Below, in pieces: positions 10,803 through 62,624 of a stretch of DNA of 64,000 bases. The notes under the pieces were generated by a model that was given only the letters and a program-made list of their open reading frames with translations, made no database searches and was not told the origin of the DNA. This stretch comes from an uncultured virus (IMG/VR IMGVR_UViG_3300017998_000010) (Duplodnaviria; Heunggongvirae; Uroviricota; Caudoviricetes): the IMG/VR virus record IMGVR_UViG_3300017998_000010, positions 1 through 64,000 of that record, one strand, 5' to 3'. Position numbers and translations under genes: made by a program. Positions within the stretch are counted from its first letter, which is position 1; the number at the start of each line of letters is the position of its first letter.

Positions 10803-10822
10803 AACATCGTCATATTGAGCCT

Positions 10823-17261: not shown

Positions 17262-18071
<810 letters not shown>

Positions 18072-26972: not shown

Positions 26973-27160
26973 ATGATAGAAAAAATAAGAAAAATAGGTA
27001 AAAAGAATATTTTTTTTAATGGTAAAATGATAAAACGAACAGTTTATCAAGACCCTTATAATGGTAATATATGGATTGAATCTAAAGATGGTGGAATACA
27101 TTATGTTAAATGGGTTGGGGATTGTTATGAACCAACAGGACATGGTAGGGGTAAGAGGTA

Positions 27161-41530: not shown

Positions 41531-42385
41531 TTGATTGAAATGGAATGGTTACTTTCTGATGTTGATGAAATGCCACAACAACATCTCTCAGAAGCAACAA
41601 AAATAAAAATAAGTAAGACCAAGAAAAGTATGGGTAGGACAGGTGAGAAAGCACCTAATTATGGTAAACATCTCACACCAGAAACCAAAGTGAAAATTGG
41701 TAGTGCCAATTCAGGTAAACATTACTCTAAAGAGACAAATATGAAAAAAGGTCATAAAGGTGAAAGTAACCCTATGTTTGGTAGGATAGGTGAAAAATGC
41801 CCTGCGTTTGGTAGAACTGGTGATAAAAATCCAATGTTTGGCAAACACCACTCGGAAGCAACAAGAATAAAAATCGGAAACGCACAAAAAGGCAAGATAG
41901 GTGTGTTATGTCCTAATTATGGTAAACATCCATCAGAGGCAACAAAAATAAAATTAAGTGTGGCAAATAAGGGTAGACCTTCTCCTATGAAGGGAAAACA
42001 CCAATCAGAGGCATCAAGAGAAAAAATGAGAGAAAAAGCACCATTAAAAGAAAAACATAATAGAGGTGGAAAAACATCTCATTTGGTTACGATATCACTC
42101 ATTAGTAATCAATTGGAGAGATTAGGGTGGGCAGTACAGAGTTGGACTACAACGGGAGAGAGATTTGTTAGAATAGATAAATATAATTATGTACCCGACA
42201 TCTATGCCAAGAAGGGTAATGATATCATTCTAGTTGAGGTTGGGGATTGTTCTACACAGAAACTATGCAATCTTATGATCAAATATCCAATAGTGTTGCA
42301 AGTCCCAAAAATGAAAATGGAACTAAAACCTATTGATATTAGAGACTTAGTTAATTGGCATAAATTTTATCGTTGGATGGTGTGA
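41531..42385 (+). CDS. NUMOD3-repeat plus PD-(D/E)XK-like nuclease (paralogue of 29352)
   Basis: NPMFGKHHSE repeats; YVPDIYA...LVEVG. Confidence 0.8.
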   Translation: MIEMEWLLSDVDEMPQQHLSEATKIKISKTKKSMGRTGEKAPNYGKHLTPETKVKIGSANSGKHYSKETNMKKGHKGESNPMFGRIGEKCPAFGRTGDKNPMFGKHHSEATRIKIGNAQKGKIGVLCPNYGKHPSEATKIKLSVANKGRPSPMKGKHQSEASREKMREKAPLKEKHNRGGKTSHLVTISLISNQLERLGWAVQSWTTTGERFVRIDKYNYVPDIYAKKGNDIILVEVGDCSTQKLCNLMIKYPIVLQVPKMKMELKPIDIRDLVNWHKFYRWMV

Positions 42386-46986: not shown

Positions 46987-47703
46987 TTAAAGTAGCCTGT
47001 TAAATAAATTCCATTTATATAGTGTGGACATTTCATTCTTAGAGAATTGAAATTCTAACTCCATTTTCAGCTTTGACACATGTAATACCACAGGATAATG
47101 GGACATTAAGTGGCATAGTTTTTGTGTTGTGCAACTTCCAACCTCAACCAAAATTGGATTATTATTATCCTTTGTAGCATAAATATCAGGTGAGTATTTG
47201 TGTTTATCTATCGTGATAAATCTCTCTCCTGTTGTACACCAACTTTCAACTTTCCATCCCAGACTCTCTAATCGACTACTAATGAGTGCTATAGTAACTA
47301 GGTGGGATGTACCTCCACCTTTGGTGTGATGAACACGTAGTTGGTGTGCTACACTTATTTTTACTCTTTCCTCTTGCGTGTGATGTCTGCCATAATTAGG
47401 GCATAACCCACCAGTTTTACCAAACATAGGACTTTTTTCACCTCTATTAGCATCACCAATTAGTTTTTTTGTTTCCTTTGTGTGATGTTTGCCAAACATA
47501 GAGGTTTTCTCACCAGTTAAATGTATACCAAACGCAGGGCATTTTTCACCTGTCACACCAAACATGGGGTTATTCTCACCTTTATTAATCTCACTTAATA
47601 GCTTTTTTGTTGTGTCTGAGAGATGCTTACCTTTCTTAGCCTCACTCTGTAGTTTTCTTGTTACATCTGATGGGTGTTCTCCTTTCTTTGGCATTTCAAT
47701 CAA
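46987..47703 (-). CDS. NUMOD3-repeat plus PD-(D/E)XK-like nuclease (paralogue)
   Basis: MFGKHHTKE repeats; YSPDIYA...LVEVG. Confidence 0.8.
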   Translation of the reverse strand: MIEMPKKGEHPSDVTRKLQSEAKKGKHLSDTTKKLLSEINKGENNPMFGVTGEKCPAFGIHLTGEKTSMFGKHHTKETKKLIGDANRGEKSPMFGKTGGLCPNYGRHHTQEERVKISVAHQLRVHHTKGGGTSHLVTIALISSRLESLGWKVESWCTTGERFITIDKHKYSPDIYATKDNNNPILVEVGSCTTQKLCHLMSHYPVVLHVSKLKMELEFQFSKNEMSTLYKWNLFNRLL

Positions 47704-48462: not shown

Positions 48463-48879
48463 ATGTCAACAACAGAATTAGAATTACTCAAGCAACAAGT
48501 TGAAAACTTAAAGTCACAACTCAAAGTAGCTGAGAATAAGAAGGTTATTGAGGTAAATGAATCTACACAAACAATTGACAACCCAATGTCTAGATTAATT
48601 CTTCTCGGTTTGGATAAGATTTCTGATGATTCAGGTCCAATTGCAAGTTTTTATAAGAAAATTTGGAGTTTTGGTAATTATGCTATTATTTGTGGTATAG
48701 GTGGAACTGCCGTAAATTATTTAGTTCTTTCATCTCTTGTTAGTATTTTACCATTAATTATAGCGGATATTTGTGCAATTCTGGTTGCCGCTTTCTGGAA
48801 CTATTCATTAACAGTTGGTGCATTAGGATACTTAACAGGATTAGCACCCAAGAGAAAGAATAAAGGGCAATGGCTCTAA
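48463..48879 (+). CDS. GtrA-like membrane protein
   Basis: YAIICGIGGTAVNY...AILVAAFWNY. Confidence 0.7.
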   Translation: MSTTELELLKQQVENLKSQLKVAENKKVIEVNESTQTIDNPMSRLILLGLDKISDDSGPIASFYKKIWSFGNYAIICGIGGTAVNYLVLSSLVSILPLIIADICAILVAAFWNYSLTVGALGYLTGLAPKRKNKGQWL

Positions 48880-49430
48880 TGTTTGAAGAATTTTATCTTT
48901 TTTTACTTTCCACAATACCTTCTCTTGGTAATATCCACGTGTGGTCTTTGGTTGTATATATTGCCTTTTGTTTAGTTGCATTTTATAAAATCTCCAAGTA
49001 TTATAATATTGTTATTAGTGCATTATTAACTCTTTTAGTTGGTATAATAGCAAATGATTTTTATGAAACTATCTGGACAGCCTTTGCACAGATTCCATCC
49101 AGAACAGTGTTAATACCACAAGATATGATAATTCTAAGTTCTCTTGTTGTCCTTTTGTTTGTCGTTAATAGAAAAACAGTATTTTTAAGAATAAATAAAA
49201 CTTTTGTTATTTTAATTTCTCTTGAAATTCTTTCATTTTTTGTATTATATTTCACAGGGCATTATGAGGTACTTAGACCTTGGTTCTTGTCTGGTGGACA
49301 AACACCAGACCCACATAATTGGTTATGGATGATCAATAAGGGTTTGGGTGCTTTTGCTTTATATCCGCTTATATTGAGTAAGGAACAGCGAAATTTAAGA
49401 TTGAAGGGGGGAAAGAGAAAACGTCAATAA
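48870..49430 (+). CDS. Multi-TM protein, family member 1
   Basis: HVWS, NDFYETIW, TPDPHNWLWMINKGLG. Confidence 0.75.
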   Translation: MALMFEEFYLFLLSTIPSLGNIHVWSLVVYIAFCLVAFYKISKYYNIVISALLTLLVGIIANDFYETIWTAFAQIPSRTVLIPQDMIILSSLVVLLFVVNRKTVFLRINKTFVILISLEILSFFVLYFTGHYEVLRPWFLSGGQTPDPHNWLWMINKGLGAFALYPLILSKEQRNLRLKGGKRKRQ

Positions 49431-49441
49431 TCGACTTCTGG

Positions 49442-49993
49442 TTGTGGATTTATAATCTTTTATTATTAGAAGTTCATATTGGTGGTTATCAGCTTCACGT
49501 TTGGTCATTTGTAACATATGCAGTTTTCTGTTTTGTGGCTTTCTATAAAATATCTAGATATACAAACATTGTCTATGCCCTTATGTTAGCTTATTTATTG
49601 GGTGCTTTTGGAAATGATCTTTATGAATCCATTTGGCAGTATATGACATATGAGACAAATATAAATTCCTATTTTATGCAGTATATTGTTGTGGTTATCG
49701 GATTGTTTGTAGCACTTATTGTCTGTAATTATTTGTTTAAATTCATACATCTAACCAAACTGAGCATTGCTTTATATTTGATTGAACTTTCAACATTTTA
49801 TATCTTCACATTTACAGGTTACTATCCACTAGTACGTGCTTGGTTGGCTTCTGGTATGACAACACCAAATCCACATGATTGGCTGTGGATGATTAACAAG
49901 GGACTTGGCGTATGGTTCCTATACCCAATGATACTTAACAAAAAGCAACATGAGGAACGAACGAAGAAACATGAACAACCCAAAACTAAGTAA
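49442..49993 (+). CDS. Multi-TM protein, family member 2
   Basis: HVWS, NDLYESIW, TPNPHDWLWMINKGLG. Confidence 0.75.
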   Translation: MWIYNLLLLEVHIGGYQLHVWSFVTYAVFCFVAFYKISRYTNIVYALMLAYLLGAFGNDLYESIWQYMTYETNINSYFMQYIVVVIGLFVALIVCNYLFKFIHLTKLSIALYLIELSTFYIFTFTGYYPLVRAWLASGMTTPNPHDWLWMINKGLGVWFLYPMILNKKQHEERTKKHEQPKTK

Positions 49994-50618
49994 AAATATA
50001 AATGTTATAGTGACTTGGGTTATTCCAATTTTGATCATTATATATTGTACCATTCCTATTTTACAGACCAAAAGTATATATGCAGTATCACAGATTCCAT
50101 TCACAATTAATTATGTTCATAGTTATTCTATGATATTGTTTTCAATTGCTTTTATGATGTATCAAAGAGTATTAAAACATATTCCTATTATAACTAGAAT
50201 AGTTGCTTCTTTTCTCATAGTTGCCATACATAGTTACTTTGGTGGATTTCTATGGGACTTCAATAACTTTGCAATAAATGGTGTTTGGAATATCATGTTC
50301 ATCACGGATGTGACCGTAATTGTGTGGTTTTACTGGATTCTTCTAATTTTGAATAAACACTATCCAATATTGAAGAAAAAGTTGAGTATTTCTGATAAAC
50401 TAAAGACAGTAGGGCTTCTACTTTTACAGGGAATTGGTTATCTTGCTTTGTGGATTAATGGTTTCTGGACACACTTTGCCGTCGGTAGTTCCTATAATTA
50501 TGATCCAAACGCCAATGTCTTTTGGCTGTTTATGCGTACAACAACGTTCTTCCTATTTTACTACCTAGTTGAGCATGGTAAAGAAGAAAATTATAAAATT
50601 GAATCACCAAGGTTTTAA
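49950..50618 (+). CDS. Multi-TM protein, distant family member
   Basis: VHSYS, GFLWD, YDPNANVFW at equivalent positions. Confidence 0.65.
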   Translation: MRNERRNMNNPKLSKNINVIVTWVIPILIIIYCTIPILQTKSIYAVSQIPFTINYVHSYSMILFSIAFMMYQRVLKHIPIITRIVASFLIVAIHSYFGGFLWDFNNFAINGVWNIMFITDVTVIVWFYWILLILNKHYPILKKKLSISDKLKTVGLLLLQGIGYLALWINGFWTHFAVGSSYNYDPNANVFWLFMRTTTFFLFYYLVEHGKEENYKIESPRF

Positions 50619-50620
50619 AA

Positions 50621-51292
50621 ATGGATGAAGCAACTTTAATGTCACTATTAGCATATTTTGTGATGTGGATACTTCCTGCTTTTGCAATAATGTTCTACTA
50701 CTATAAAACATCAAAGTTAAACAAAATATATATATTTTTGTATATTGGTCTTTTATTTACACTATTTATGCAAGTATTTTATACATTTATACAGTCTAAT
50801 GGATCATATTTAACATATATATTAAATGCTACTTCTATAACATATTTAATATCTTTTTATGGTTTTATTGGTCTTTCATTTATAATGTACCTTATGGTTG
50901 ATAGAAAATGGGACTTCCCACAAGCATTTGCTATTTCGGTTGTGTCTGTTGGTGTAGGAAGATTTTTCTGGGAAGCACCAACAATTATATATAACGTACT
51001 TCAAAAAGGATTTGTGATAGATATTTTCTTACAGCTTGTTGGTCTTTTGTTTGTTCTTTTCATATATATTACCTGTGGATGGAAAAGTGATAGAAAAACA
51101 ATAATTGCTGTTTTATCTGGTGTTATCATTTCAATATTATTCTTATATTTTAGATCACCAGTTCCAACAGAGAATAGTAGTATTATAGCTAGTTATTGGA
51201 ATTCACCTTATTTTATGATCAACAGGTTTATAAACATCTTGATAGTACTATATTGTGTTAATAAATCGAAACCTATGGAGAAATCTAAATAG
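50621..51292 (+). CDS. Multi-TM protein
   Basis: About 7 hydrophobic helices; FFWEAP and YFMINR. Confidence 0.65.
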   Translation: MDEATLMSLLAYFVMWILPAFAIMFYYYKTSKLNKIYIFLYIGLLFTLFMQVFYTFIQSNGSYLTYILNATSITYLISFYGFIGLSFIMYLMVDRKWDFPQAFAISVVSVGVGRFFWEAPTIIYNVLQKGFVIDIFLQLVGLLFVLFIYITCGWKSDRKTIIAVLSGVIISILFLYFRSPVPTENSSIIASYWNSPYFMINRFINILIVLYCVNKSKPMEKSK

Positions 51293-51334: not shown

Positions 51335-51967
51335 GTGAAAGGACATAACTATGGACTCTGCCGTAAGTGTGGCAAGGTACACATACATCCGTTTAATGGA
51401 AAGCCCAGAAGCAGGGAATGGGGGGATAATATATCAAAAACTAAGAAAGGTATGTGTGTTTCAGAAGAACAAAAAGAAAAGACATCTAAAAGTTTAAAAA
51501 AATTATATGAAAATGGTGAACGAACCGTTTGGAATATTGGTAAAACTAAGTATAATAATGAAAGTGTAAAAAGAATTAGTGATGCTAATATAGGGCACAT
51601 TCCTTGGAATAAAGGAAAAACAAATGTCTATTCACAAAAAACATTAGATTCAATTAGTAATAAACTTCATATATATTTTGAAAATGATGCTAAATATCTT
51701 AATATTTCAAGAGAGTCTGATGAACATAAAACTATAAAAAATAAAATAGCAAACGAAATACGTTCTCTTGGTATGGTTGTAGAAACAGAGAGATTTATAA
51801 CAATTAATGGACATCGTTATGCTGTAGATGTTTATGCAAAAAAGCAAAATGGTGATGTTATGATTTTTGAGGTAGGAAATTGTAAAAAGAAAAAGATGAA
51901 TGATTTACAAACACATTATTCACTTATATTTCATGTGCCAAAAACCAGTGGTGGTCGTTTAGTATGA
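51335..51967 (+). CDS. NUMOD3-like plus PD-(D/E)XK-like nuclease (divergent paralogue)
   Basis: PWNKGKT; ERFITINGHRYAVDVYA...FEVG. Confidence 0.7.
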   Translation: MKGHNYGLCRKCGKVHIHPFNGKPRSREWGDNISKTKKGMCVSEEQKEKTSKSLKKLYENGERTVWNIGKTKYNNESVKRISDANIGHIPWNKGKTNVYSQKTLDSISNKLHIYFENDAKYLNISRESDEHKTIKNKIANEIRSLGMVVETERFITINGHRYAVDVYAKKQNGDVMIFEVGNCKKKKMNDLQTHYSLIFHVPKTSGGRLV

Positions 51968-52905
51968 TCATTACAAGAACACCTTTACGTATAACACTTG
52001 GGGGTGGTGGAACAGACATACCAGAATACTATCAAGAAAACGGTGGTTTCTGGATTTCAGCTACAATCGACAAATACATATATATAGCTATAAACACTAG
52101 GTTTGAGAAAGAACTTAGAATAGTTTATTCAAATCTAGAAATTACTAAAGGCAATCGAGATATTCAACATCCAATAATCAGGGAGATATTCAAGAAGTTT
52201 AACATATGGCAGAATCAGGAATTTATCACATTTGCTGATCTACCCGGAAGTTCAGGATTAGGTTCTTCTGGTGCTTTCACAGTTGGTGCAATAAAGGCAT
52301 TTAATCCTACAATAAGTAAAACCGACTTGGCTGAACAGGCATATTCCATTGAACGGAACAATCTTTCAAGACCCATCGGAAAGCAGGATCAATATTCGGC
52401 TTCTTTTGGTGGAACTAGAGTTTATATGATTGGTAGGGATGGTAAAGTTGATGATATAATTCTCACAGAACCAGAACTTACAAACCACTTAATGTTAATT
52501 TATACCTCAAATATACGTGATTCGGGAAGGATACTCAATACTGTAAAGGAATCCACACGGCAACTTAAAGATATTGAAGAGATTGGTAGAGAATCCGCTA
52601 AGGCTATTATGAATCTGGATTATCAAAAACTTGGTGAACTTATGGATGATCACTGGAAAATTAAAAAGACAATTTCACCTGAGATGTCTACACCAGAGAT
52701 AGATAATCTCTATGATGAATTGAGACAAAACGGTGCTATTGGTGGAAAATTAGTCGGTGCAGGTAGTGGTGGATTCCTCATGGTAGTTATTCCAGATAAT
52801 AAAACAAGAACAAAAATTCTTCAGTCTGGTTGTTTCGAGAGTAGGGCATATGTTCCATTCAAAATGACATATACAGGCTCAGAGGTGATAGCAGGTGACA
52901 GCTAG
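51964..52905 (+). CDS. hddA: GHMP kinase, D-glycero-alpha-D-manno-heptose-7-phosphate kinase-like
   Basis: TPLRITLGGGGTD, PGSSGLGSSG, GKQDQY, GGKLVGAGSGG. Confidence 0.85.
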   Translation: MIITRTPLRITLGGGGTDIPEYYQENGGFWISATIDKYIYIAINTRFEKELRIVYSNLEITKGNRDIQHPIIREIFKKFNIWQNQEFITFADLPGSSGLGSSGAFTVGAIKAFNPTISKTDLAEQAYSIERNNLSRPIGKQDQYSASFGGTRVYMIGRDGKVDDIILTEPELTNHLMLIYTSNIRDSGRILNTVKESTRQLKDIEEIGRESAKAIMNLDYQKLGELMDDHWKIKKTISPEMSTPEIDNLYDELRQNGAIGGKLVGAGSGGFLMVVIPDNKTRTKILQSGCFESRAYVPFKMTYTGSEVIAGDS

Positions 52906-53464
52906 ACAGGTAATTGATGAAGTTGTAAAATATTTACCAGAAACGAATATAATTCTTATAAAAGATATTGCAAATGCAATTTTCATCAGGGCACACCGTT
53001 TTAATGCTACGGTGTGGTTAGTTGGTAATGGTGGTTCGTCAGCAACGATGAGTCACTTAGCATCAGACCTTACAAACCTTGGAATACAAGCAATCTGCAT
53101 AACAGATAATGTCCCCTCCCTCACAGCCAAGATAAATGATGATGGTTGGGATGATGTTTACTCTTCCGTTGTCAAGGGTAGGATCAAGAATGGTGACATT
53201 CTCATTATGGCTAGTGTGAATGGTTCAAGTGGCAAGAGTCCGAATGATGAGTTGTGGAGTTCTAATTTGTTTAATTTAGCAAAGTATTTTAAATCTATGC
53301 ACGGTTATAGATATGCTTTTATAGGCAATAATGGTGGTAATTTAAAAGAGTTATGTGATATTTCACTCTGTGTAGATACAAGAAATCCTTATATAGTTGA
53401 GGGAATACATAGTGTCTTAGCACATGCATTAGTATCGGAAATAAATGTATTGAAGGTAACATGA
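52895..53464 (+). CDS. gmhA: Phosphoheptose (sedoheptulose-7-P) isomerase, SIS domain
   Basis: GNGGSSA..SH...D, LTAKIND, EGIH...H. Confidence 0.85.
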   Translation: MTARQVIDEVVKYLPETNIILIKDIANAIFIRAHRFNATVWLVGNGGSSATMSHLASDLTNLGIQAICITDNVPSLTAKINDDGWDDVYSSVVKGRIKNGDILIMASVNGSSGKSPNDELWSSNLFNLAKYFKSMHGYRYAFIGNNGGNLKELCDISLCVDTRNPYIVEGIHSVLAHALVSEINVLKVT

Positions 53465-53868
53465 TGTCGATAACAAAAATAACAGAAGATATATTTATAG
53501 GAAACGATAAATATACTTTAGACGATCTTAGAAGTAATAATATTTGTTTCGTTATAAATGTGGGTGGAAGTGATACAGGATTTGAGGATTATAAGTTCCA
53601 TCTAGTGGATGGTCACAATCCTATTAAGCACTATAATCTAGTCTTGAAGAAGATTAGAGAACAAGTTAATAAAAGAAAGAGAATACTAATTCATTGTCGT
53701 GAAGGTAAGTCTCGTTCAGCGTTTGTGGTCGCACTATATCTAGCTAGACACGAAAAAATAACAGTTCTAACTGCTATAGATATGATTACTAAACTGAACA
53801 AAAAGACTGAGATAAATGAAGAAATGTTAAAAACGTATATGGAGGATGTTGGGCTATATTATACTTAG
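53461..53868 (+). CDS. Dual-specificity (CX5R) phosphatase
   Basis: IHCREGKSRS. Confidence 0.9.
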   Translation: MMSITKITEDIFIGNDKYTLDDLRSNNICFVINVGGSDTGFEDYKFHLVDGHNPIKHYNLVLKKIREQVNKRKRILIHCREGKSRSAFVVALYLARHEKITVLTAIDMITKLNKKTEINEEMLKTYMEDVGLYYT

Positions 53869-54533
53869 ATTCGGCAGACTTGAAAGAGATAGATGAGATT
53901 CTTAGCCTTGGTTTATGTGATGGTATTACAACCAACCCAAGTCTAATGGCAAAATCTGGTGTGAAAGACATACAGAAGATGATACATGATATATGTCAAT
54001 ATGATATATATGATGTATCTGTTGAGTTGATTGATCCATTTTTATCTATAGATAAACTTGTTGATGAAGCAACAGAATACTATATGTGTTGTATGGAAAA
54101 GGTAGTAGTAAAAGTACCTATGATTGATACTCGCACATCAGAATTAATAAATGCTTTAAAAAGAAAACATATTCCAGTAAATCTAACATGTCTAATGTCT
54201 GCTTATCAGGCTATCATTGGTCTTGAGTCAGAACCATATTATATCTCCCTTTTCTACAGGAGAATGATTGATTTCAAGAACTTTGATTACGCAAAGGAAC
54301 AGATCAGAATAACAGCCGAATATTTACAGAGATTTGGTAGTGGTGATAGACCACTCCTAATCTGTGGAAGTATCAGAAGTCCAGAGGATGTTCAGGTCTG
54401 TATGGATAGCGGTGCTGATATTGTAACAGTTCCGTACAAAGTCCTAAATGAGATGTACAAACATCCCAAAACAGAGGAAGCTGTAAAAGAATTCACTGAA
54501 AAATGGAAAACAGCTTTAAAACCAGTTGTGTAA
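53856..54533 (+). CDS. tal: Transaldolase (TalC/FSA family), probable ATA start
   Basis: LYLDSAD upstream of the track start; GITTNPSL, VVVKVP, GSIR, GADIVTVP, HPKT. Confidence 0.88.
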   Translation: MLYLDSADLKEIDEILSLGLCDGITTNPSLMAKSGVKDIQKMIHDICQYDIYDVSVELIDPFLSIDKLVDEATEYYMCCMEKVVVKVPMIDTRTSELINALKRKHIPVNLTCLMSAYQAIIGLESEPYYISLFYRRMIDFKNFDYAKEQIRITAEYLQRFGSGDRPLLICGSIRSPEDVQVCMDSGADIVTVPYKVLNEMYKHPKTEEAVKEFTEKWKTALKPVV

Positions 54534-54801
54534 GATAAAATGTCAATCAACATAGACAAAAAACAAATATTTCATATATCTGTCTATGTAGATGTAATTT
54601 CTATTCTTTTTTGTTTCATGGTTTTTTGTCCAATGGGTTATACAACGGCTGTGATACAAACCGAACCTGCTAGGACACTGTGTGCTTTAAGTTATAACCC
54701 AATAATACAAACAATTCTTATTATAACGATTTTATATACAATAATTTTGGTGGTATATGATGATTATTTCTCAAAGAATTCAATTTTGAGAGGTAATTAA
54801 A

Positions 54802-56001
54802 ATGTCTGAATGTTCACTCTGTACTATTCCTCAACGAGAAAAACTTATTTACACAGATGAATTAGTATATGTTGTGGAAACTAAAGATAAGAAAGGGCAT
54901 AAAATTCGTCTGATGTCCAGCATAATTAGACACTCTGATAAACCTACTTTTGAAGAACAGATACGTGTCAAAGCCAAGCTCATAGAATACATGAACAAGT
55001 ATGTCGGTATCAAGCCTTGGTATTTCTGTGATTCTACACACTGCTCAATACCAGAACACTATCATTTTGTTGCCTGTGATGCAGAATCAACCGATCCAGA
55101 GGAAATGGCACTATTAGATAATACACTAAAAGTGAAGTTTCCATTAGGTCATAATATCCTGATTGGTATTCCTGCATATAATGAACAGGATAACATTAAA
55201 GATGTAGTAAAAGAGTCCAAGAAATATGGTGATGTTCTTGTTGTTTCCAATGGATCAACAGATGGAACAGCTTTTCTTGCAAAATCTTATGGTGCTAAGG
55301 TTCTAGAATTTGATTGGTCTGGATATGGCAGAGCTTTACAAGAAATCTTCAAATATGCTAAGGTTAATGATTATGATGTCCTCATTACGCTTGATGGAGA
55401 TGGACAGCATGATCCTAATGAAATTCCAAAGTTTTTAGATAAAATTCAAGATTCAGATATTGTTGTTGGTAATAGGTTTTCAGTAACAAATAATATGCCT
55501 TACCATAGAAGAGTTGTTGTTCAGGGAATTAATATGATCTATGGTATTGGTGATACTCAGTGCGGTTTCAGGGCATATAATAAATTTGCAATTGATAGGC
55601 TACATTTGACAGCAGATGGAATGGAAGCATCCCTTGAGATAATTAATAGGGCAAGAGAGAAGGGTTTAAACATAACAGATGTGCCATGTAATGTCACTTA
55701 TAACAAACCAGAACATCCCACAAAATTTATATATCAGGGTCTGACACTCATTGAGATAATATTCTGGGGTGCTGTATGGAATAGACCCTACACATATATT
55801 GGAATACCAACAGCCATCTTATTCTTAACATCATTATTCTCTGGTCTATACACGACAGGTTTATATCTCGAAACATTCAAACTCAATATATCTATGGCAC
55901 TCATCTGTGGTATAAGTTTTATAGCTTCTCTGATGCTGGGAACCATAACATTTATAATCAGTATGCAACGTAGATTAGTGAAAGAGTTGAATGTCAAATG
56001 A
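54802..56001 (+). CDS. HIT-like N-terminal domain fused to DPM1-like GT2 glycosyltransferase with C-terminal TMs
   Basis: CSLC...RH...SIPEHYHFV; IPAYNE, GSTDGT, LDGDGQH, DTQCGFRAY. Confidence 0.8.
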   Translation: MSECSLCTIPQREKLIYTDELVYVVETKDKKGHKIRLMSSIIRHSDKPTFEEQIRVKAKLIEYMNKYVGIKPWYFCDSTHCSIPEHYHFVACDAESTDPEEMALLDNTLKVKFPLGHNILIGIPAYNEQDNIKDVVKESKKYGDVLVVSNGSTDGTAFLAKSYGAKVLEFDWSGYGRALQEIFKYAKVNDYDVLITLDGDGQHDPNEIPKFLDKIQDSDIVVGNRFSVTNNMPYHRRVVVQGINMIYGIGDTQCGFRAYNKFAIDRLHLTADGMEASLEIINRAREKGLNITDVPCNVTYNKPEHPTKFIYQGLTLIEIIFWGAVWNRPYTYIGIPTAILFLTSLFSGLYTTGLYLETFKLNISMALICGISFIASLMLGTITFIISMQRRLVKELNVK

Positions 56002-56242
56002 GCAAAATTAACGATTTTTATTTTATTTTATTTATAACTGTTTCTACTGCCTTTGCTATATTAACGGTATCTTTTTTGGGTGGATTGTTTGTTGGATCGC
56101 AAGAATTATTTAATACAATGCTTATAACTAATGATGCTGTTGAAATTGTTTGCGGGTTTATTTCAATACCATTCATTTTTATGTATGGTTATATTTTATT
56201 TAAGTTTTGTGAAAAAATTGGTTTTAAGGAATTAAACATCAA

Positions 56243-57196
56243 ATGACCGACTTTACTTTAATTGTTACGGGTGGATCAGGATTTATCGGGTCAAACCTCT
56301 TGGATATGTTGGTTGAGAAATATAAAAAATACTATGATGTTAAAATAATATCTATTGACAAAAGACCACCTGACAAAATGTTCGATGATGTTGAATATAT
56401 TGTGGAAGATTTAGCCGATCCAGAATTCAAATATATAAATGAGAAACCAAGGGCTGTTATTCATTTGGCAGGTTCTCCTTGGTCAAAAGTCAAGGGTGAT
56501 CAGGGCTGGTTAGCAGAGGCAGATAATTGCTTCTATAATAACACGGTTGCAACATATAACGTTCTTTCAAAAATTCGACCAGAGAAAATTATATTTTCCT
56601 CTTCGGCTAATATATATGGTCAAGGCAGGAGAATGAGAGAGATACATCCCATTCAAATCTCAAGTCCGTATGGCTATTCAAAGTGGGTTTGTGAAGAGGA
56701 AATTAGGAAGTCTGGTATAGAGTATGTGATCTATAGATTCGGAACGGTTATTGGAATAAGAGGCAGAACCTTCCCTAATAGGCTTGTTTACTGTGCTGTG
56801 CATGGTATTCCAATAGAACTATTCAACAACGGAAAAGCCTATAGAGATTTAATATCCGTACATGATATTTGTAGGGCATTAATATCTGCCATATACATGC
56901 AGACCTGTGAACCGTTTGAGAATACATATAATGTCTCGATGGGGATGGAGGTAAGTGGTTCGACAATAGCGGAAATTGTTGCAAGGACAGCCACAAAATA
57001 TGGTTATAAACTTGATTATTCCAAGACACCGTTTGCACCAAATGGATATGTGCTAGAATCTACGCTAAATATTGAAAAAATATACAAACGTTTCGGCTGG
57101 AAACCAGAGAAGAATGTCTCAACTGTGTTGGATGAACTTTTCAAGTATTATGTGGAACCAGATGCAAAAATCCCCCCAGCTTGGGAGAGTTTATAA
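56243..57196 (+). CDS. NAD-dependent nucleotide-sugar epimerase/dehydratase (extended SDR)
   Basis: VTGGSGFIG, FSSSA, YGYSK. Confidence 0.9.
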   Translation: MTDFTLIVTGGSGFIGSNLLDMLVEKYKKYYDVKIISIDKRPPDKMFDDVEYIVEDLADPEFKYINEKPRAVIHLAGSPWSKVKGDQGWLAEADNCFYNNTVATYNVLSKIRPEKIIFSSSANIYGQGRRMREIHPIQISSPYGYSKWVCEEEIRKSGIEYVIYRFGTVIGIRGRTFPNRLVYCAVHGIPIELFNNGKAYRDLISVHDICRALISAIYMQTCEPFENTYNVSMGMEVSGSTIAEIVARTATKYGYKLDYSKTPFAPNGYVLESTLNIEKIYKRFGWKPEKNVSTVLDELFKYYVEPDAKIPPAWESL

Positions 57197-57667: not shown

Positions 57668-59023
57668 TTGAAAGTTCTTTTATTGAACCCACCGGGAGAA
57701 GCAATAAGAACGGGAAGGCTAGTTCGTAAATCAAAGATTAGTACACAATCATGGTATCCTATCCATCTTGCGTATGCTACTGGAACACTAGAGAAATTTG
57801 GACATGAATGTTATTTATATGATGCTTCTGTGAAAAAAGATTCGTGTTTAGACGTTAAGTTTCTTGTTAATAGTCTGAAACCAGAAGCCATAGCCTATTT
57901 CTGGGCATATGATACGGCAGAATCCGATCTTTCATTCGCTAATGAATTGGGTAAGGATTACCATGTAACTCTCGTTGGTCCTTGGTCTGCTCATATGCCC
58001 GATGCTCTAGATAAATGCCCAAACGTTAATGAAATGACTTTCGGAAATTTTGAATACACGTTACAAGACCTTTATACAGATGAGCCAAAGAGATTAATAC
58101 AAGGTCTAAAATATAGAGAAGGTAAAGATATTCTCTTCAATCCACAGGCTGAACCGTATACACAGGAAGAATTTGATTGGATGCCTTTCGTTACAAAGGT
58201 TTATGCTGAACACTTAGACTTTTTTGATTATCATCAGACAAGTTTCAGGTATCCGTTTATTGATTTATTTTCAGCTTTAAGTTGCCCTCACCGTTGTGCG
58301 TTTTGTAGTTGGACAAATGGTTGTGATCTCTTACATCCAAAGCGTTATGTACAGCGTAGCATCAAGAATGTGATGGAAGAACTTTGGTATGTCAAAAATG
58401 AACTTCCACAGATCAAACAACTTTTCTTTCAAGATTCAACACTTATTGGATCAAGGGCAAGGGAAATCAGTCTTACAATGCTCAGTGAAGGACTCAAATT
58501 GTGTTGGGGTTGCTATTCACGTGCTGATAAGGATTATGATACACTGAGACTGATGAAAGATGCTGGTTGCCGGACTTTGCACGTTGGCTATGAAGTTCCA
58601 ATTCAGAGCTATTTAGATGAGATGAAAAAGGATATTACAGTCAAACAGGAAGCACAATTTATCAAGGATGTCAACAAGCTCAAGCTCTGGACTTCCTCTA
58701 GTTTTATGATCTTCCCTTGGATGTCGAAAGCTGATATAAGATATATGGTCAAATGGATAAAGGATAACGGTGCTACCCGTATTAATGTGGCACAATTGCA
58801 GGAGTATCCAAACACGACTATAGTTGATGTTAGAAAGGCACATCAAGACATGCCGGGAACGTATATGATGAACTTTGAGGAAATGAAGAAATGGGAGCAA
58901 TACTGTTTTAACGAATTCTATATCAAAAACCCAAAGTTCTGGTGGAATGTTGCCACAAACCCAAGAGAGTGGGTTAATGTTTTCAACGATGCCAAAGGTA
59001 TGGTGGGATTCTTATTTGAATGA
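57668..59023 (+). CDS. B12-binding radical SAM enzyme (HpnJ-like)
   Basis: VLLLNPP...WYPIHLAY; SCPHRCAFC; FFQDST; HVGYE. Confidence 0.85.
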   Translation: MKVLLLNPPGEAIRTGRLVRKSKISTQSWYPIHLAYATGTLEKFGHECYLYDASVKKDSCLDVKFLVNSLKPEAIAYFWAYDTAESDLSFANELGKDYHVTLVGPWSAHMPDALDKCPNVNEMTFGNFEYTLQDLYTDEPKRLIQGLKYREGKDILFNPQAEPYTQEEFDWMPFVTKVYAEHLDFFDYHQTSFRYPFIDLFSALSCPHRCAFCSWTNGCDLLHPKRYVQRSIKNVMEELWYVKNELPQIKQLFFQDSTLIGSRAREISLTMLSEGLKLCWGCYSRADKDYDTLRLMKDAGCRTLHVGYEVPIQSYLDEMKKDITVKQEAQFIKDVNKLKLWTSSSFMIFPWMSKADIRYMVKWIKDNGATRINVAQLQEYPNTTIVDVRKAHQDMPGTYMMNFEEMKKWEQYCFNEFYIKNPKFWWNVATNPREWVNVFNDAKGMVGFLFE

Positions 59024-60446: not shown

Positions 60447-61087
60447 TGGTTGGTATGTCTATTGAAGATGTTGCAAGGTTATGGGAAGAGGAATGGATAA
60501 AATCAGCCGATATACATGAACACAGTTCCATTATTGGTAAATTCCTTCGTGTCCAGAGAATGGGAATAATAAGAAAAATGTTAAAATCAATATCTAAAGA
60601 ACTATCAGCAATTGATGTAGGTTGTGGAAGTGGGGAAACATTACTACTCTTGCGAGATATAGGTTTTAAAAACTCAATCGGAATAGACATATCATCACAT
60701 GCAATGAGAAAATCAGAACTACATGGATTAACAGAAAATGTAGATGTTTTCAGAAAAGATGGTTCCAATACAGGCTATCCAGATAGAAAGTTTGATTTTA
60801 TGTTTTCTGAGGGTTTGTGGGAACATTTTAAAGACCCACTACCGTTCATAAAAGAAGGTTGCCGAATCTCAGATAAGTGGTTAATGATAGTTCAACCAAA
60901 CCATTTTTCTTTCTTTGGTGGTCTACTTAATTGGGGTTGGGAACACTTTAGTCAGCAGGGTGTACATGAATATTCATTCCCTATGAGTTATTTCATAGAC
61001 AATGTTACAAGAAATGGGTTTACAATCATTGACAGAAGAGGAACATATTTAAATGAACAAAATGTTTTGTTTTTTAGAAGAGACTAA
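60443..61087 (+). CDS. Class I SAM methyltransferase
   Basis: IDVGCGSG, GIDIS, GLWEHF. Confidence 0.85.
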   Translation: MMVGMSIEDVARLWEEEWIKSADIHEHSSIIGKFLRVQRMGIIRKMLKSISKELSAIDVGCGSGETLLLLRDIGFKNSIGIDISSHAMRKSELHGLTENVDVFRKDGSNTGYPDRKFDFMFSEGLWEHFKDPLPFIKEGCRISDKWLMIVQPNHFSFFGGLLNWGWEHFSQQGVHEYSFPMSYFIDNVTRNGFTIIDRRGTYLNEQNVLFFRRD

Positions 61088-62624
61088 GGCTAAAATCAGC
61101 AAAACTAGCATATGGCTATTTATATTATCTATTGCAGGTATTTTTTACAGATCATATCCGCATCTTTATCTCATACCACGTTGGATTATTGAAGAGGAAG
61201 GATATGTATACACAATTCTTGACTTAATAAAAACAGGTACAACCTTTCGCCTTGGTTATCAACCTGTTTTAGAACAATACTTAGTATATTTTATCTACTT
61301 AATAACACACATTGATCCAACAATTTTATGCCAATATGTAAACCCAATCATCGGTGGATTGACAATAATTCCTATTTATTATATACTAAGAAAAATATCA
61401 ACCCAGAAAGTAGCACTTGTAGCAACAACACTATGGACATTTAGTGAAAATATGATATATAGATCGAGCATATTCAATAGTACAGAATCGTTAGGTTTCT
61501 TTTTTGCAATGCTTGCTCTTTATATGTATTTAAATACAAAAGATAAAGAACAAAGAAACAGCAAAATAAAATTCTTTTGTGGTTTCTTAGTGTTTATAGT
61601 AATATCAATGTATACACACATATTACCAGCAGTTTTTATTATAGGCTTGGTATTGTTAGATATTTTCTTAAATGGAAACTATAGACACAAAGTTTATGTA
61701 GCCGTTGTGTTATGTCTGGTTGTTTTATTTTTGATTTCATCATTAAATCCACATCAAGTAATGACATATTTTATTCTACCTAGTTCAATGTCATCACAAT
61801 TCAAATTATCTAATATATTTTTATACTCCATATCTGATTTATTACTTGGTGTGTCTATTTTCTTTGGTAGTGTTGTTATGGTTATATTATCATTAATATC
61901 AATATTGTTATATAAACCAAAGATAAATATTATGTTTGAATATTTATTTGGTTGTATTTTATTATTTGTCGTTAGTTGGTTATTCTATTCACCATATCTA
62001 ATTGCACCAACAAGAGTAATTTTTTATTTTATTTTACCATTATCATTCTTTACTTCTTTACTAATTAGCAAATTTAAAACAATATTGTCTATTATTTTTA
62101 TATTAATTATTATTACAACTATGATATTAACATCTATAAATGGTGCTAATACTATGTTATATATTAATAATGCAATGACATCGGATGAATATGAATTCTT
62201 AGGACACAGTTCAATTATACACAATACATATAATTTTACCGAATGGTGGACAGATGTACCAATGAAAAATTCACTTATATTTTACTCTTCAGACCTCAGA
62301 TTACCGTTGCTACAGGATAGTTTTTATACTATAGAAAATCAAAGAATTGAAGTAAATTTGAACTTAACTGTATCTACGACAAAAACAACAATAAATGCAA
62401 ATGAAACCACAACCGTAGAGATAATACCACCATTTTTTAAATATATCATTCTGAGTCCTAGAATGGAGAAATCTGCTTTCTTTTTCTTCAAAACCAAGTA
62501 TAGAACAGTTCAAATCAATCAACCAATTCCAGATATTTGGAAAGACTTACCTGATTGGAAATTAGTTGAAGAGTATAAAAACATAAAGATTTATAAATGG
62601 ATAGGAACAAGTATAGATGGATAG
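61053..62624 (+). CDS. Polytopic membrane protein, GT-C/oligosaccharyltransferase-like
   Basis: Many TM helices, acidic EEE in the first external loop, soluble C-terminal domain containing WWTD. Confidence 0.55.
   Translation: MNKMFCFLEETKAKISKTSIWLFILSIAGIFYRSYPHLYLIPRWIIEEEGYVYTILDLIKTGTTFRLGYQPVLEQYLVYFIYLITHIDPTILCQYVNPIIGGLTIIPIYYILRKISTQKVALVATTLWTFSENMIYRSSIFNSTESLGFFFAMLALYMYLNTKDKEQRNSKIKFFCGFLVFIVISMYTHILPAVFIIGLVLLDIFLNGNYRHKVYVAVVLCLVVLFLISSLNPHQVMTYFILPSSMSSQFKLSNIFLYSISDLLLGVSIFFGSVVMVILSLISILLYKPKINIMFEYLFGCILLFVVSWLFYSPYLIAPTRVIFYFILPLSFFTSLLISKFKTILSIIFILIIITTMILTSINGANTMLYINNAMTSDEYEFLGHSSIIHNTYNFTEWWTDVPMKNSLIFYSSDLRLPLLQDSFYTIENQRIEVNLNLTVSTTKTTINANETTTVEIIPPFFKYIILSPRMEKSAFFFFKTKYRTVQINQPIPDIWKDLPDWKLVEEYKNIKIYKWIGTSIDG

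Follow-up and report, generated by a model that had tools for sequence, protein, structure and literature searches.

A heptose-type operon from a large virus-like element of archaea, with a dual-specificity phosphatase and a HIT-glycosyltransferase fusion at the positions of GmhB and HddC

The pathway to GDP-D-glycero-alpha-D-manno-heptose, used in capsules and S-layer glycans, relies on the enzymes GmhA, HddA (WcbL), GmhB and HddC (WcbM). Recognizable relatives of the first two, lying beside proteins of other folds, are encoded in the 64,000-nucleotide stretch of DNA analyzed here (hereafter the window), which originates from a large virus-like element of archaea, and this raises the question of which proteins might perform the two remaining steps. 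The heptose genes found among the open reading frames of the window are tightly packed in one run on the + strand (51964-56001), with overlaps of 4-11 bases or gaps of 1-11 bases between neighbors of the operon. Read on to the end of the SDR gene at 57196, the order is HddA, GmhA, Cys-based dual-specificity phosphatase (DSP), transaldolase (Tal), small membrane protein, HIT-GT2 fusion, small membrane protein and SDR. All five genes that the initial annotation had placed in this interval, for a kinase, an isomerase, a phosphatase, a transaldolase and the fusion protein, are present, and were assigned to families by profile, PDB and structure matches. Gene identities, folds, conserved residues and the equivalence of gene order discussed below are directly established.

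The first gene (51964..52905) encodes a 313-residue, HddA/WcbL-like D-glycero-D-manno-heptose-7-phosphate kinase of the GHMP family, containing the Pfam domains GHMP_kinases_N and GHMP_kinases_C. Its best NCBIfam model is HddA (2.7e-37, 129 bits; cut-off 600), and its best solved relatives are heptose-7-phosphate kinases of the WcbL/HddA type (4usk, 3.4e-33; 4n3o; 3k85), behind which mevalonate kinase ranks at 1e-11. The following gene (52895..53464) codes for a GmhA-like sedoheptulose-7-phosphate isomerase of 189 residues with a SIS domain, for which gmhA is the best NCBIfam model (1.1e-15, 58 bits against a cut-off of 209) and each of the 12 best sequence matches in PDB is to a phosphoheptose isomerase (top match 1.5e-14). 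The short, subfamily-5 type transaldolase (53856..54533, or from 53880) matches Pfam TAL_FSA at 4e-26 when read from 53880 and at 3.3e-29 on the extended frame, and its match to true short transaldolases (1vpx, 2.9e-29) exceeds that to fructose-6-phosphate aldolases (1e-12 and weaker). Its conserved N-terminal motif LYLDSAD begins at 53859, upstream of the first ATG, GTG or TTG codon (TTG at 53880). Since a start at 53880 would lose this motif, translation probably begins at the ATA codon at 53856, inside the 3' end of the DSP gene.

The layout of the window can be compared with that of L278, a canonical operon from archaea. It lies in a genome of the phylum that was sampled around the 'Thermoprotei' MAG behind locus L018, and its order, HddA-GmhA-GmhB-Tal-nucleotidyltransferase-SDR, is collinear with that of the window operon. 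The HddA (9074-10156), GmhA (10153-10767) and transaldolase (11346-12077) of L278 are 36%, 35% and 36% identical to their window counterparts, and its terminal SDR (12799-13761) corresponds to the SDR-type NDP-sugar epimerase/dehydratase of the window (56243..57196; Pfam Epimerase, 2.9e-28). The two operons thus have in common the first two enzymes of the GDP-heptose pathway and the gene order, including the transaldolase and the terminal SDR, but differ at two positions. Where L278 encodes the HAD phosphatase GmhB (10802-11401; best PDB match 2gmw, a D,D-heptose 1,7-bisphosphate phosphatase, 2.1e-31), the window has the DSP, and where L278 encodes a Rossmann-type nucleotidyltransferase (12084-12806), the window has the fusion of a HIT domain with a membrane GT2 enzyme. 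Of four canonical archaeal loci whose kinase scores over 170 bits (L275-L278), only one has the transaldolase in this order. Kinases of HddA grade were found in few genomes of the candidate host phylum (four of 301 reach at least 173 bits, and another two about 105 bits), so that a dedicated host GmhB or HddC is not to be expected by default.

The DSP (53461..53868, 135 residues) matches Pfam DSPc at 1e-12 (48.4 bits, where the cut-off is 33.5) and has an intact P-loop, HCREGKSRS. Its sequence gives no hint of sugar phosphates as substrates, and its nearest solved relatives are protein phosphatases: DUSP10 is the closest (7e-8), and DUSP21 and VHR are also among the nearest. The Cys-X5-Arg DSP fold is not restricted to protein substrates: laforin, SEX4 and PTPMT1 use it on sugars or lipids that are phosphorylated. 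No specific sequence relation of the window DSP to these enzymes was found. Two independent lines of comparison bear on its role. One is the collinearity with L278, in which it takes the position of GmhB; the other is L218, an unrelated 155-kb virus contig encoding an HddC-like nucleotidyltransferase (no HAD domain), an SDR, GmhA, a GT4 enzyme and an HddA-like kinase (8001-8951), the latter directly followed by a DSPc protein (8944-9393, 8.4e-19) that is 30% identical to the window DSP. No HAD protein was detected among the 11 unassigned open reading frames of L218 scanned with Pfam. The proposal of the initial annotation that the DSP replaces GmhB is strengthened by both, and on these sequence comparisons the DSP is a well-supported candidate for a heptose-1,7-bisphosphate 7-phosphatase that stands in for the HAD enzyme.

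The fusion protein (54802-56001, 399 residues) combines a divergent HIT fold of about 115 residues (residues 1-115, 54802..55146) with the GT2 domain (55156..56001). Residues 1-118 match no Pfam family, HIT included; the HIT-like fold suggested earlier for this part of the protein was borne out by structure prediction. The AF2 model (pLDDT 95.3) aligns with human HINT2 (hHINT2) at a VIA-align Z of 11.5 (rmsd 2.6 over 99 residues), 16 chains score at Z>=8, and rows 2-11 of the Foldseek search are HIT/Hint proteins. When compared with eight canonical archaeal HIT proteins by hhalign (probability 90.7%, E 1.2e-6), the domain retains the CxxC and GH motifs, the upstream histidine (His44) and the second and third histidines of the triad (His86 and His88), whereas the first triad histidine is lost, Glu85 being found there. 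In the alignment of homologues C4, C7, H33, R36, H44, H86 and H88 are invariant. The HIT superfamily includes the Hint/Fhit hydrolases, Rv2613c (a Hint-like Ap4A phosphorylase) and, in its GalT branch, galactose-1-phosphate uridylyltransferase and ADP-glucose phosphorylase. Its common fold is closest to the window domain in Hint-type hydrolases (Z 10-11.5) and in Rv2613c (Z 10.1), while GalT-type transferases reach Z 4.8-6.0 (6.0 for the GalT-like protein At5g18200); GalT itself consists of tandem half-barrels, in contrast to the single domain found here. The homodimer model of the domain scored 0.60, against 0.01 for the best among three controls, with contacts agreeing to at least 96% between runs and pLDDT of at least 88. 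Of 30 proteins solved as pairs of one chain, 20 attained this mark, as did one of 23 solved as single chains; these counts hold only roughly here, as an author-made alignment was used, and the result may echo resemblance to known structures since HIT dimers have already been solved.

Judged from 38 homologues, the HIT domain is conserved about as strongly as the GT2 domain, with 13/115 against 23/182 invariant columns and a mean pairwise identity of 47% against 52%. The HIT-GT2 family has about 60 other members, and in the 19 GenBank phage or virus records matching the fusion protein the match never extends to its N-terminal domain. Window-type HIT domains are fused not only to GT2, but also to a transaldolase (P0129) and to a HAD-like domain with a DVDGTL motif (P0158). 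Standalone homologues are 28-31% identical; a viral locus (L172) and one of two cellular loci have them in contexts without sugar genes, and the other cellular locus adjoins a BacA/UppP gene. The location at the nucleotidyltransferase position, the fusions to transaldolase and HAD-like domains and the conservation equal to that of GT2 together make it plausible that the HIT domain performs the activating step in the role of the nucleotidyltransferase.

The GT2 part has the GT-A fold of polyprenyl-phosphate glycosyltransferases such as GtrB, ArnC, DPMS and AglJ, and C-terminal membrane helices. It matches Pfam Glycos_transf_2 (6e-19, residues 121-230 of the fusion), the NCBIfam models AglJ (3.9e-31) and PpgS (9e-28) best, and ArnC (8.4e-15), DPMS (1.2e-14) and GtrB (1.6e-12) best in Foldseek; its catalytic motifs are intact, and D198, D200, Q202 and H203 are invariant in the homologue alignment. 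None of the matched solved structures of the GtrB/ArnC/DPMS type is described with an N-terminal HIT domain, and the closest GT2 relatives without it are of about 282 residues and 44-51% identical. The fusion gene is flanked by genes for two small proteins (54540..54800, 86 residues; 55998..56246, 82 residues) with two hydrophobic segments each by Kyte-Doolittle analysis (in 19-mers for the former). The first has no significant Pfam family and the second none in Pfam or NCBIfam; the first could possibly be a GtrA-like flippase component. Further downstream are found a B12-binding, HpnJ-like radical SAM enzyme (57668..59023; NCBIfam TIGR03471, 5.1e-56, under its cut-off) and a GT-C fold glycosyltransferase of the STT3/PMT_2 type (61053..62624; Pfam STT3, 9.4e-11, and PMT_2, 1.7e-5). 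The latter has at least eight hydrophobic segments, does not contain the W-W/Y/F-D-Y/W/F-G motif as searched by simple regex, and is a candidate user of lipid-linked sugar outside the membrane. Phage Gtr systems (GtrABC) follow a three-component logic, and their serotype-conversion modules resemble the window cluster in its small membrane proteins and GT-C enzyme, but the window module forms part of an operon for sugar synthesis.

Canonical genes for the two steps were sought throughout the window and in the ~28 kb that follow it on an 82-kb IMG/VR contig of the same element. At E<=0.01, the 150 stop-to-stop frames of at least 80 residues in the window contained no HAD, NTP_transferase or CTP_transf_like domain, nor did the 21 open reading frames and 41 frames of the downstream DNA, and custom nucleotidyltransferase, HAD and CTP-transferase profiles gave no match at E<=1 in six-frame translations of the ~92 kb, the nucleotidyltransferase profile having matched its controls. 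The lack of GmhB and HddC noted for the window therefore extends to ~92 kb. As contigs carrying the identical fusion protein reach 213,709 bases, the searched DNA is the minor part of the element, of which at least 120 kb lies beyond it.

T4-like phage cassettes (Caulobacter phage Cr30; IMG/VR L183-L259) have an HddA-like kinase, 29-43% identical, adjoining a GmhA-like isomerase, and their nucleotidyltransferase, where present, is of the NTP_transferase or cytidylyltransferase-like type. Of the 77 viral HddA loci compared with that of the window, the isomerase is present in 68 and a transaldolase in 12; 19 have a nucleotidyltransferase of the former type and 29 one of the latter, and 24 have a HAD protein. 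In 25, neither a nucleotidyltransferase nor a HAD protein was detected within 6 kb by the custom profiles, that for HAD being narrow. Absence near the kinase is thus common and by itself no proof of replacement. The initial annotation had proposed to look for the DSP and HIT-GT2 in clusters with hddA and gmhA but lacking gmhB and hddC; the DSP recurs in L218 only, where the nucleotidyltransferase is kept, and HIT proteins of either kind are missing from the vicinity of the kinase in the 77 viral and in five archaeal loci, which confines the link between HIT and heptose to the lineage of the window as sampled.

We consider it about as likely as not that these genes form a heptose module in which two steps were displaced in place, the canonical HddA-GmhA-GmhB-Tal-HddC-SDR operon being either its source or the arrangement on which it converged. 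Of the earlier interpretation, the HIT fold and the lack of detectable gmhB and hddC in ~92 kb hold and the DSP in place of GmhB is well supported, whereas a self-contained route is conjectural, given the DNA beyond the search, the similarly gapped viral loci and the partial set of Cr30. A possible, if rather doubtful, alternative is that the virus only boosts precursor supply, isomerization and 1-phosphorylation, a HAD phosphatase and a Rossmann nucleotidyltransferase of the host, or from a distal part of the viral DNA, completing NDP-heptose. The DSP may then be a protein or general phosphatase, and the HIT domain a GT2 accessory, hydrolyzing, for instance, the NDP set free or NMP-adducts against product inhibition, or sensing nucleotides. 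This would suit the one-third of viral loci with neither gene, the reduced sets of the T4-like loci L229, L213, L246, L255 and L257 (GT4, kinase and isomerase only) and of cultured phage Cr30 (epimerase, GT2, kinase and isomerase only, with no nucleotidyltransferase or HAD annotated alongside), the closeness of the HIT fold to Hint-type hydrolases and of the DSP to protein DSPs, and the unsearched remainder of the element. A commentary on Tang et al. 2024 likewise describes viruses as without the phosphatase (PMC11461863). The host-completed reading accounts less well for the DSP and HIT domain lying exactly at the GmhB and HddC positions of a collinear operon, for L218 with its nucleotidyltransferase and its DSP beside the kinase, for the HIT fusions to transaldolase and HAD-like domains, and for the rarity of HddA-grade kinases in the candidate host phylum.

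It is improbable that HIT-GT2 acts outside the heptose route, loading another sugar onto polyprenyl phosphate, such as a hexose or an amino sugar produced by the downstream genes that modify UDP-GlcNAc, while the heptose enzymes feed another transferase of the island. AglJ and PpgS do use hexose or HexNAc donors, the nearest HIT-less GT2 relatives are generic, and the island is rich in other sugar genes, including GT2 enzymes from 63313 on and further downstream, a UDP-GlcNAc 2-epimerase, a DegT aminotransferase, a second SDR, acetyltransferases and methyltransferases. Against this, the fusion gene lies within the heptose block between tal and the SDR, where neighboring genes are 1-6 bases apart or overlap by 4 bases, P0129 joins the same HIT domain to a transaldolase, and L278 has the heptose nucleotidyltransferase at the corresponding position. 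Very improbable indeed is a role of the kinase and isomerase with a non-heptose sugar, with no heptose pathway here: both score far under the curated cut-offs, but their top solved relatives are heptose enzymes by wide margins, they adjoin a transaldolase supplying sedoheptulose-7-phosphate, and their operon is collinear with one holding a bona fide GmhB.

For the displaced heptose module we infer every substrate and activity as follows. The transaldolase would raise sedoheptulose-7-phosphate, which the GmhA-like isomerase would convert to D-glycero-D-manno-heptose-7-phosphate and the HddA-like kinase to heptose-1,7-bisphosphate; the DSP would then remove the 7-phosphate instead of GmhB. Replacing HddC, the dimeric HIT domain, with His86 as nucleophile, would put a nucleoside monophosphate onto heptose-1-phosphate by GalT-type or phosphorylase-type chemistry, from an abundant NDP-sugar, NTP or NDP. 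At the membrane, the fused GT2 would load the heptose onto polyprenyl phosphate, and the small membrane proteins and downstream GT-C enzyme would serve to flip this lipid-linked sugar and to transfer it to a target on the surface or the virion, in the manner of phage GtrABC systems. If this is true, the canonical phosphatase and activating enzyme would have given way, at the same operon positions, to two unrelated types of protein, and the substitute for the activating enzyme would share one polypeptide with the transferase that places the sugar on its membrane lipid carrier.

ORF calling places six tightly packed open reading frames (ORFs) at 51964-56001 (+), and matches to Pfam families and PDB structures bear out the initial annotation, which had read an operon with an hddA-like kinase, gmhA, a CX5R phosphatase and a transaldolase. 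The first gene (51964-52905, +) encodes a GHMP kinase whose best NCBIfam model is HddA/WcbL (NF049969); its 129 bits lie under the curated cut-off of 600 bits, a very strict threshold that was reached by none of 14 control genomes and none of 301 Thermoproteota genomes. The best solved relatives of the kinase are heptose-7-phosphate kinases of the WcbL/HddA type (4usk, 3.4e-33; 4n3o, 7.4e-31; 3k85, 1.1e-28), with mevalonate kinase next at 9.5e-12, which sets the heptose kinases clearly apart from other GHMP kinases. The second product (52895-53464, +), an SIS protein identified from its solved relatives as a GmhA-like isomerase, also scores under its curated cut-off (58 versus 209 bits, TIGR00441); in the PDB, every one of its top 12 matches is a phosphoheptose isomerase (down to 1.5e-14), and the alignment spans residues 20-179, taking in the GNGGS and H..L.H segments (SIS domain and C-terminal His helix). 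It is followed by a DSPc-family phosphatase (DSP; 53461-53868, +; PF00782, 48.4 bits against a cut-off of 33.5) with an intact P-loop, HCREGKSRS (Cys-X5-Arg), which by sequence looks like a protein phosphatase, its nearest solved relatives being protein DSPs such as DUSP10 (7e-8). The short transaldolase encoded next (+; PF00923, 92-103 bits for a cut-off of 27) resembles true short transaldolases (1vpx, 2.9e-29) far more than fructose-6-phosphate aldolases (FSA, 2.5e-12). Its conserved N-terminal LYLDSAD motif begins at 53859 and, because the first ATG, GTG or TTG occurs only at 53880 and would cut this motif off, the gene probably uses the non-canonical start ATA at 53856, in which case its first bases would overlap the 3' end of the DSP gene. 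The operon is completed by a protein of 86 aa that has two hydrophobic segments (54540-54800, +, from ORF and hydrophobicity analysis) and by a 399-aa HIT-GT2 fusion (54802-56001, +). Directly upstream, an ORF rich in zinc-ribbon and KGK motifs (51335-51967, +) overlaps the start of the operon.

The fusion protein belongs to a conserved family. In a word-based search, the first 61 clusters in succession align over 87-100% of the query, with identities of 39-100%, and GT2 forms of about 282 aa that have no N-domain come after them. In the alignment of 38 full-length members, the N-domain is nearly as conserved as the GT2 half (mean pairwise identity 47% versus 52%; 13 of 115 versus 23 of 182 columns invariant). 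The one Pfam domain detected is GT2, at residues 121-230 (PF00535, 69 bits); in NCBIfam the protein comes closest to two polyprenyl-phosphate transferases, AglJ (108 bits against a cut-off of 325) and PpgS. The DxD motif, D198-x-D200, is invariant, C-terminal helices are predicted at 306-398, and the full-length model (pLDDT 88) matches ArnC (8.4e-15), DPMS (1.2e-14) and GtrB (1.6e-12) in Foldseek; the modelled GT2 half can thus be assigned to the polyprenyl-phosphate glycosyltransferases of GtrB/ArnC/DPMS/AglJ type. A motif scan found the fusion in IMG/VR in two contigs alone, both from the element studied here, and among the matches listed from genome and metagenome contigs with GT2 motifs the N-domain is present only in L093, a contig of 1,089 bases, the rest being generic GT2 proteins. 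Identical copies of the HIT-GT2 protein are encoded by 31 contigs of up to 213,709 bases. A 201-aa relative (P0122), possibly a deletion variant or an artefact of assembly, lacks GT2 altogether: its HIT domain runs straight into the C-terminal membrane helices.

As the initial annotation had proposed, the first ~115 residues of this protein are predicted to adopt the alpha/beta fold of the HIT superfamily. Modelled alone with 39 standalone homologues (pLDDT 95.3), the N-domain retrieved HIT/Hint proteins in rows 2-11 of a Foldseek search (E ~5e-4, range 1e-4 to 1e-3), while VIA-align over 48,161 chains gave a Z of 11.5 to human HINT2 (rmsd 2.6, 99 residues aligned), 16 chains with Z of at least 8, and 20 best rows that by title all belong to the HIT superfamily, including aprataxin, Fhit, DcpS and the Hint-like Ap4A phosphorylase Rv2613c (Z 10.1). 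GalT-type entries score lower (1gup, 1z84, 6k5z; Z 4.8-6.0 versus 10-11.5 for Hint-type proteins) and the protein has a single 115-aa domain, not two tandem half-domains, which leaves it outside the GalT type (HIT branch III); the modelled fold resembles Hint hydrolases more than it does GalT-type transferases. In sequence searches, the N-domain matches neither the Pfam HIT model nor, alone, any Pfam family, PDB sequences gave no match, a homologue profile (A2) reached only sub-significant HIT matches among them (0.03-0.04), and a word-based search with the N-domain alone returned, among near-length matches, only one 72-aa fragment. Profile alignment by hhalign against eight canonical archaeal HIT proteins gave a probability of 90.7% (E 1.2e-6), in a register where C4/C7 form the CxxC, G32-H33 the GH motif and H44 the upstream histidine. 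Since E85 falls at or near the first triad histidine, and H86 and H88 on the second and third, the alignment indicates that the nucleophile position is retained in an incomplete histidine triad; in known HIT enzymes the second histidine is the nucleophile. Invariant in all 38 members are C4, C7, E13, Y17, T27, G32, H33, R36, H44, E52, M64, H86 and H88. A two-copy model of the domain scored 0.60 (best of three controls, 0.01), with runs agreeing in at least 96% of contacts at a pLDDT of at least 88. Among proteins with solved structures, 20 of 30 same-chain pairs and 1 of 23 single chains attain this score, counts that hold only roughly because the analyst's own alignment was used, and since HIT dimers have already been solved, the pass may reflect likeness to known structures alone.

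The HIT domain also occurs outside the fusion. Exhaustive phmmer searching with residues 1-118 retrieved 70 proteins at E<=0.001, comprising eight fused representatives of about 400 aa, one partial GT2 form, 58 short proteins (<=222 aa), one likely spurious repeat protein and two other architectures: P0129, in which a transaldolase (residues 3-230) precedes the HIT domain (238-351), and P0158, in which it follows a HAD-like N-terminus (DVDGTL motif; weak Hydrolase_3 match, E 0.0014). Weak matches to DcpS_C, of the HIT clan, were obtained for 4 of 51 scanned N-domain homologues. A search of 401 Nitrososphaeria genomes did not find the domain, which is present in 3 of 401 genomes of the wider phylum, in all cases as a standalone gene and in one weakly. 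The one viral standalone homologue found by locus scan (L172) is distant and has no sugar genes around it; scans with the DSP and with P0129 yielded nothing new. In two cellular genomes, the standalone gene either precedes a BacA/UppP gene or lies between cdc6 and an ArsR-type gene. The former case (L268, 9908-11284, genome G533), a 130-aa homologue followed on the same strand by this polyprenyl-diphosphate phosphatase gene, is a second hint tying the HIT domain to polyprenyl-phosphate carriers.

The host is probably an archaeon of the Thermoproteota phylum, as suggested by gene content. An archaeal host is indicated by the eS30 gene, the RFC-like genes and the archaeal-type S-adenosylmethionine (SAM) synthetase; the latter is 45-49% identical to cellular enzymes, of which the sole named one comes from a Thermoproteota archaeon, a weak basis for assigning the host. 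The stretch is present in 24 peat or wetland metagenome runs, with no RNA runs among the runs listed as containing it, and GenBank phages gave no DNA match to the heptose operon and no match to the SAM synthetase. In the ~28 kb downstream of the window, the sugar island goes on with genes for two GT2 enzymes, a UDP-GlcNAc 2-epimerase, methyltransferases, an acetyltransferase, DegT, an SDR, a kinase of DAGK_prokar type and the SAM synthetase, after which come replication genes (RFC-like ATPases, a PD-(D/E)XK nuclease and a dCMP deaminase). The SAM synthetase (PF01941, 1.7e-124), downstream of the window, falls in a separate viral clade whose members are 63-99% identical; it lies at 1661-2851 (-) and the lipid kinase at 4573-4920 (-) of contig L169, and two RFC-like AAA+ proteins are encoded at 5202-6167 (+) and 7535-8392 (+) of contig L260. 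Within the sugar island, beside an acetyltransferase and methyltransferases, a B12-binding radical SAM enzyme (57668-59023, +) is closest to HpnJ (TIGR03471, 5.1e-56, below cut-off), the ring-contraction enzyme of hopanoid cyclitol ethers; it may rearrange a sugar carried on a lipid. The eS30 gene (27155-27397, +) matches Ribosomal_S30, an archaeal/eukaryotic small-subunit protein, over its cut-off (Pfam, 2.3e-10).

Several other features of the window deserve mention. Adjacent genes for collagen triple-helix repeat proteins (16303-17160, -, 2.4e-14; 17262-18140, -, 1.2e-29; Pfam) occupy its sole GC-richer stretch (44% GC), and a weak ParB_N-like region is fused to a radical SAM/DUF5131 domain at 19619-20986 (+). 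There are three NUMOD3-repeat proteins of homing-endonuclease type (29352-30320, -; 41531-42385, +; 46987-47703, -) and two very large ORFs without a Pfam family (37424-40906, +, 1160 aa; 42633-46895, +, 1420 aa), the larger of which is unmatched in GenBank phages. A run of five multi-pass membrane ORFs that belong to no family (48463-51292, +) closely precedes the operon; two of them (48870-49430 and 49442-49993) look paralogous by eye, and the first of these has a weak GtrA match (E 0.0017).

Genes for the canonical phosphatase and nucleotidyltransferase (NTase) were sought throughout about 92 kb of the element. All 150 stop-to-stop frames of at least 80 aa in the window are free of HAD, NTP_transferase and cytidylyltransferase-like domains (Pfam, E<=0.01), and neither HAD nor NTase turned up in the next ~28 kb downstream (21 + 41 frames), read from an 82-kb IMG/VR contig that belongs to this element. 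Across these 150 + 21 + 41 frames there is no HAD fold with the DxDGT-type motif I of GmhB and no HddC-type domain (PF00483 or PF01467), and custom profiles for NTase, HAD and cytidylyltransferase had no hits in the same ~92 kb translated in six frames; as controls, the NTase profile recovered the loci L199, L218 and L233, and the HAD profile, which is narrow, L199 only. PF00483 has no match in the nearest record (G001), a bounded 59-kb fragment. The statement in the initial annotation that no GmhB or HddC is recognisable in the window therefore holds, and for the full genome it extends to these ~92 kb, in an element whose contig with the identical fusion reaches 213,709 bases, at least 120 kb beyond the scans.

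HddA-like kinases are common in IMG/VR, where 221 stretches were confirmed and 79 loci kept, 77 of them not from this element. Within 6 kb of the kinase, clustering places a GmhA-like SIS gene at 68 of the 77 loci and a transaldolase at 12, and our profiles detect NTP_transferase-type proteins at 19, cytidylyltransferase-like proteins at 29, HAD proteins at 24 and none of the three at 25. Four true NTase-HAD fusions occur among the clustered loci, and Pfam reveals divergent NTases in L233 and L222 that are absent from the clustering result. With full flanks, Pfam on representatives finds only GT4, kinase and isomerase in L229, L257, L185, L188, L230 and L238, and the cultured Caulobacter phage Cr30 has annotated epimerase, GT2, kinase and isomerase genes with no adjoining phosphatase or NTase. 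A viral heptose set without gmhB and hddC nearby is thus ordinary. More informative is L218, an unrelated virus contig of 154,999 bases, in which a DSPc phosphatase (8944-9393, 8.4e-19), 30% identical to that of the window, overlaps the HddA-like kinase (8001-8951), beside which lie an SDR, a GmhA-like gene and a GT4. This contig also encodes a 235-aa NTase without a HAD domain (PDB 5z09, 4.4e-15; 6jq8, '6-deoxy-D-mannoheptose pathway protein', 6.2e-11); no HAD was found among its Pfam-scanned ORFs (all but two), and one of those two has no PDB match. As to whether the DSP and the fusion co-occur with kinase and isomerase, a check suggested in the initial annotation, the 77 loci hold near the kinase just the DSP of L218, and HIT proteins, whether of this type or canonical, are absent there.

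The L218 genes form a second elaborate viral sugar cluster (2438-14940) with an HddC-like NTase, SDR, GmhA, methyltransferase, GT4, HddA, DSP, GT1-like protein, PfkB kinase, TPP-enzyme pieces, SPASM radical SAM enzyme and a split transketolase, the last of which takes the precursor-supply role that transaldolase has in the window. In many T4-like phage loci with GT4, kinase and isomerase and no NTase or HAD, a conserved ORF of 124-132 aa (34 loci) or of about 371 aa (4 loci among those clustered) follows the isomerase (L229, 9626-10021; L186, 7439-7810; L257, 9568-10680), and a 365-aa hypothetical protein of phage Cr30 is possibly related to the longer type. These ORFs are candidates for other non-canonical steps.

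As gmhB and hddC are commonly missing near viral kinases, their absence alone is no evidence of replacement. The main rival explanation holds that the operon encodes a partial pathway finished by the host or by unseen genes, with the HIT domain as an accessory hydrolase; its Hint-like model would fit such a role, and we consider this explanation less likely than displacement. That both steps were displaced in place is argued most strongly by positional equivalence in gene order, for which there is one collinear comparator. Of 301 genomes searched with the HddA model, from the phylum to which the 'Thermoprotei' MAG behind L018 belongs, four reach 173 bits or more and two about 105 bits, the others having generic GHMP kinases. 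The four best loci are canonical: L275 (kinase, HAD, SIS, NTase, HAD), L276 (kinase, SIS, HAD, SDR), L277 (kinase, SIS, HAD) and L278 (HddA, GmhA, HAD, Tal, NTase, SDR), the last with all genes on one strand, overlapping or abutting. Its HAD protein matches D,D-heptose 1,7-bisphosphate phosphatase (2gmw, 2.1e-31), and the kinase, isomerase and transaldolase (Tal) of the window are 35-36% identical to their L278 counterparts. The order in the window is HddA, GmhA, DSP, Tal, small membrane protein, HIT-GT2, small membrane protein, SDR. Where the canonical operon has the HAD phosphatase GmhB, the window has the DSP, and where an NTase follows Tal, it has a HIT domain fused to GT2; collinearity thus appears to put the DSP in the place of GmhB and HIT-GT2 in that of the nucleotidyltransferase.

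In the displacement route, which we judge most likely with about even confidence in the whole, transaldolase would supply sedoheptulose-7-phosphate, GmhA and HddA would yield heptose-1,7-bisphosphate, and the DSP would take off its 7-phosphate, a candidate step that taken alone is probable. The HIT domain, as a dimer, would make or regenerate NDP-heptose via His86, a tentative assignment that we hold at somewhat less than even, and the fused GT2 would put heptose on polyprenyl phosphate. The small membrane proteins and a GT-C enzyme (61053-62624), in which a simple regular expression found no WWDxG-type motif, would constitute a Gtr-like export-and-attach system, and the downstream SDR, HpnJ-like enzyme, acetyltransferase and methyltransferases may tailor the sugar. 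A bolder reading, which we regard as quite improbable, sees HIT-GT2 as a self-sufficient lipid-sugar synthase of a new kind and the DSP as a phosphatase recruited to sugar bisphosphates by two or more virus lineages, jointly forming a nucleotidyltransferase-free donor route. The HIT domain would then run a phosphorylase-type reaction backwards, converting heptose-1-phosphate and the NDP released by GT2 to NDP-heptose and phosphate; the net conversion would be of sugar-1-phosphate and polyprenyl phosphate to polyprenyl-phospho-sugar and phosphate, with the nucleotide as a recycled cofactor and no NTP spent.

Heptose nucleotides are building blocks of the cell envelope and agonists of innate immunity. 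Viral heptose kinases and isomerases are already known from annotation (e.g., Cr30) and from a survey which, as described in a commentary, reported heptose enzymes in viruses and the phosphatase as absent from them (Tang et al., 2024, per PMC11461863). In the open-access papers searched, we found no description of a DSP replacing GmhB, of a HIT domain replacing HddC, or of a HIT-polyprenyl-phosphate-GT2 architecture. Large virus-like elements, probably of archaea, in peat and wetland samples carry glycosylation islands of at least 25 kb. The presence of a DSP in the slot of GmhB in two unrelated viruses offers a concrete, testable candidate for the reported missing viral phosphatase and, if the enzyme acts in this way, the substrates of the DSP fold would come to include a sugar bisphosphate of nucleotide-sugar synthesis. 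Should the activated donor be supplied or recycled by the HIT domain, this would represent a non-orthologous displacement of a sugar nucleotidyltransferase, and the two domains together would offer a compact means of producing rare sugars in lipid-linked form.
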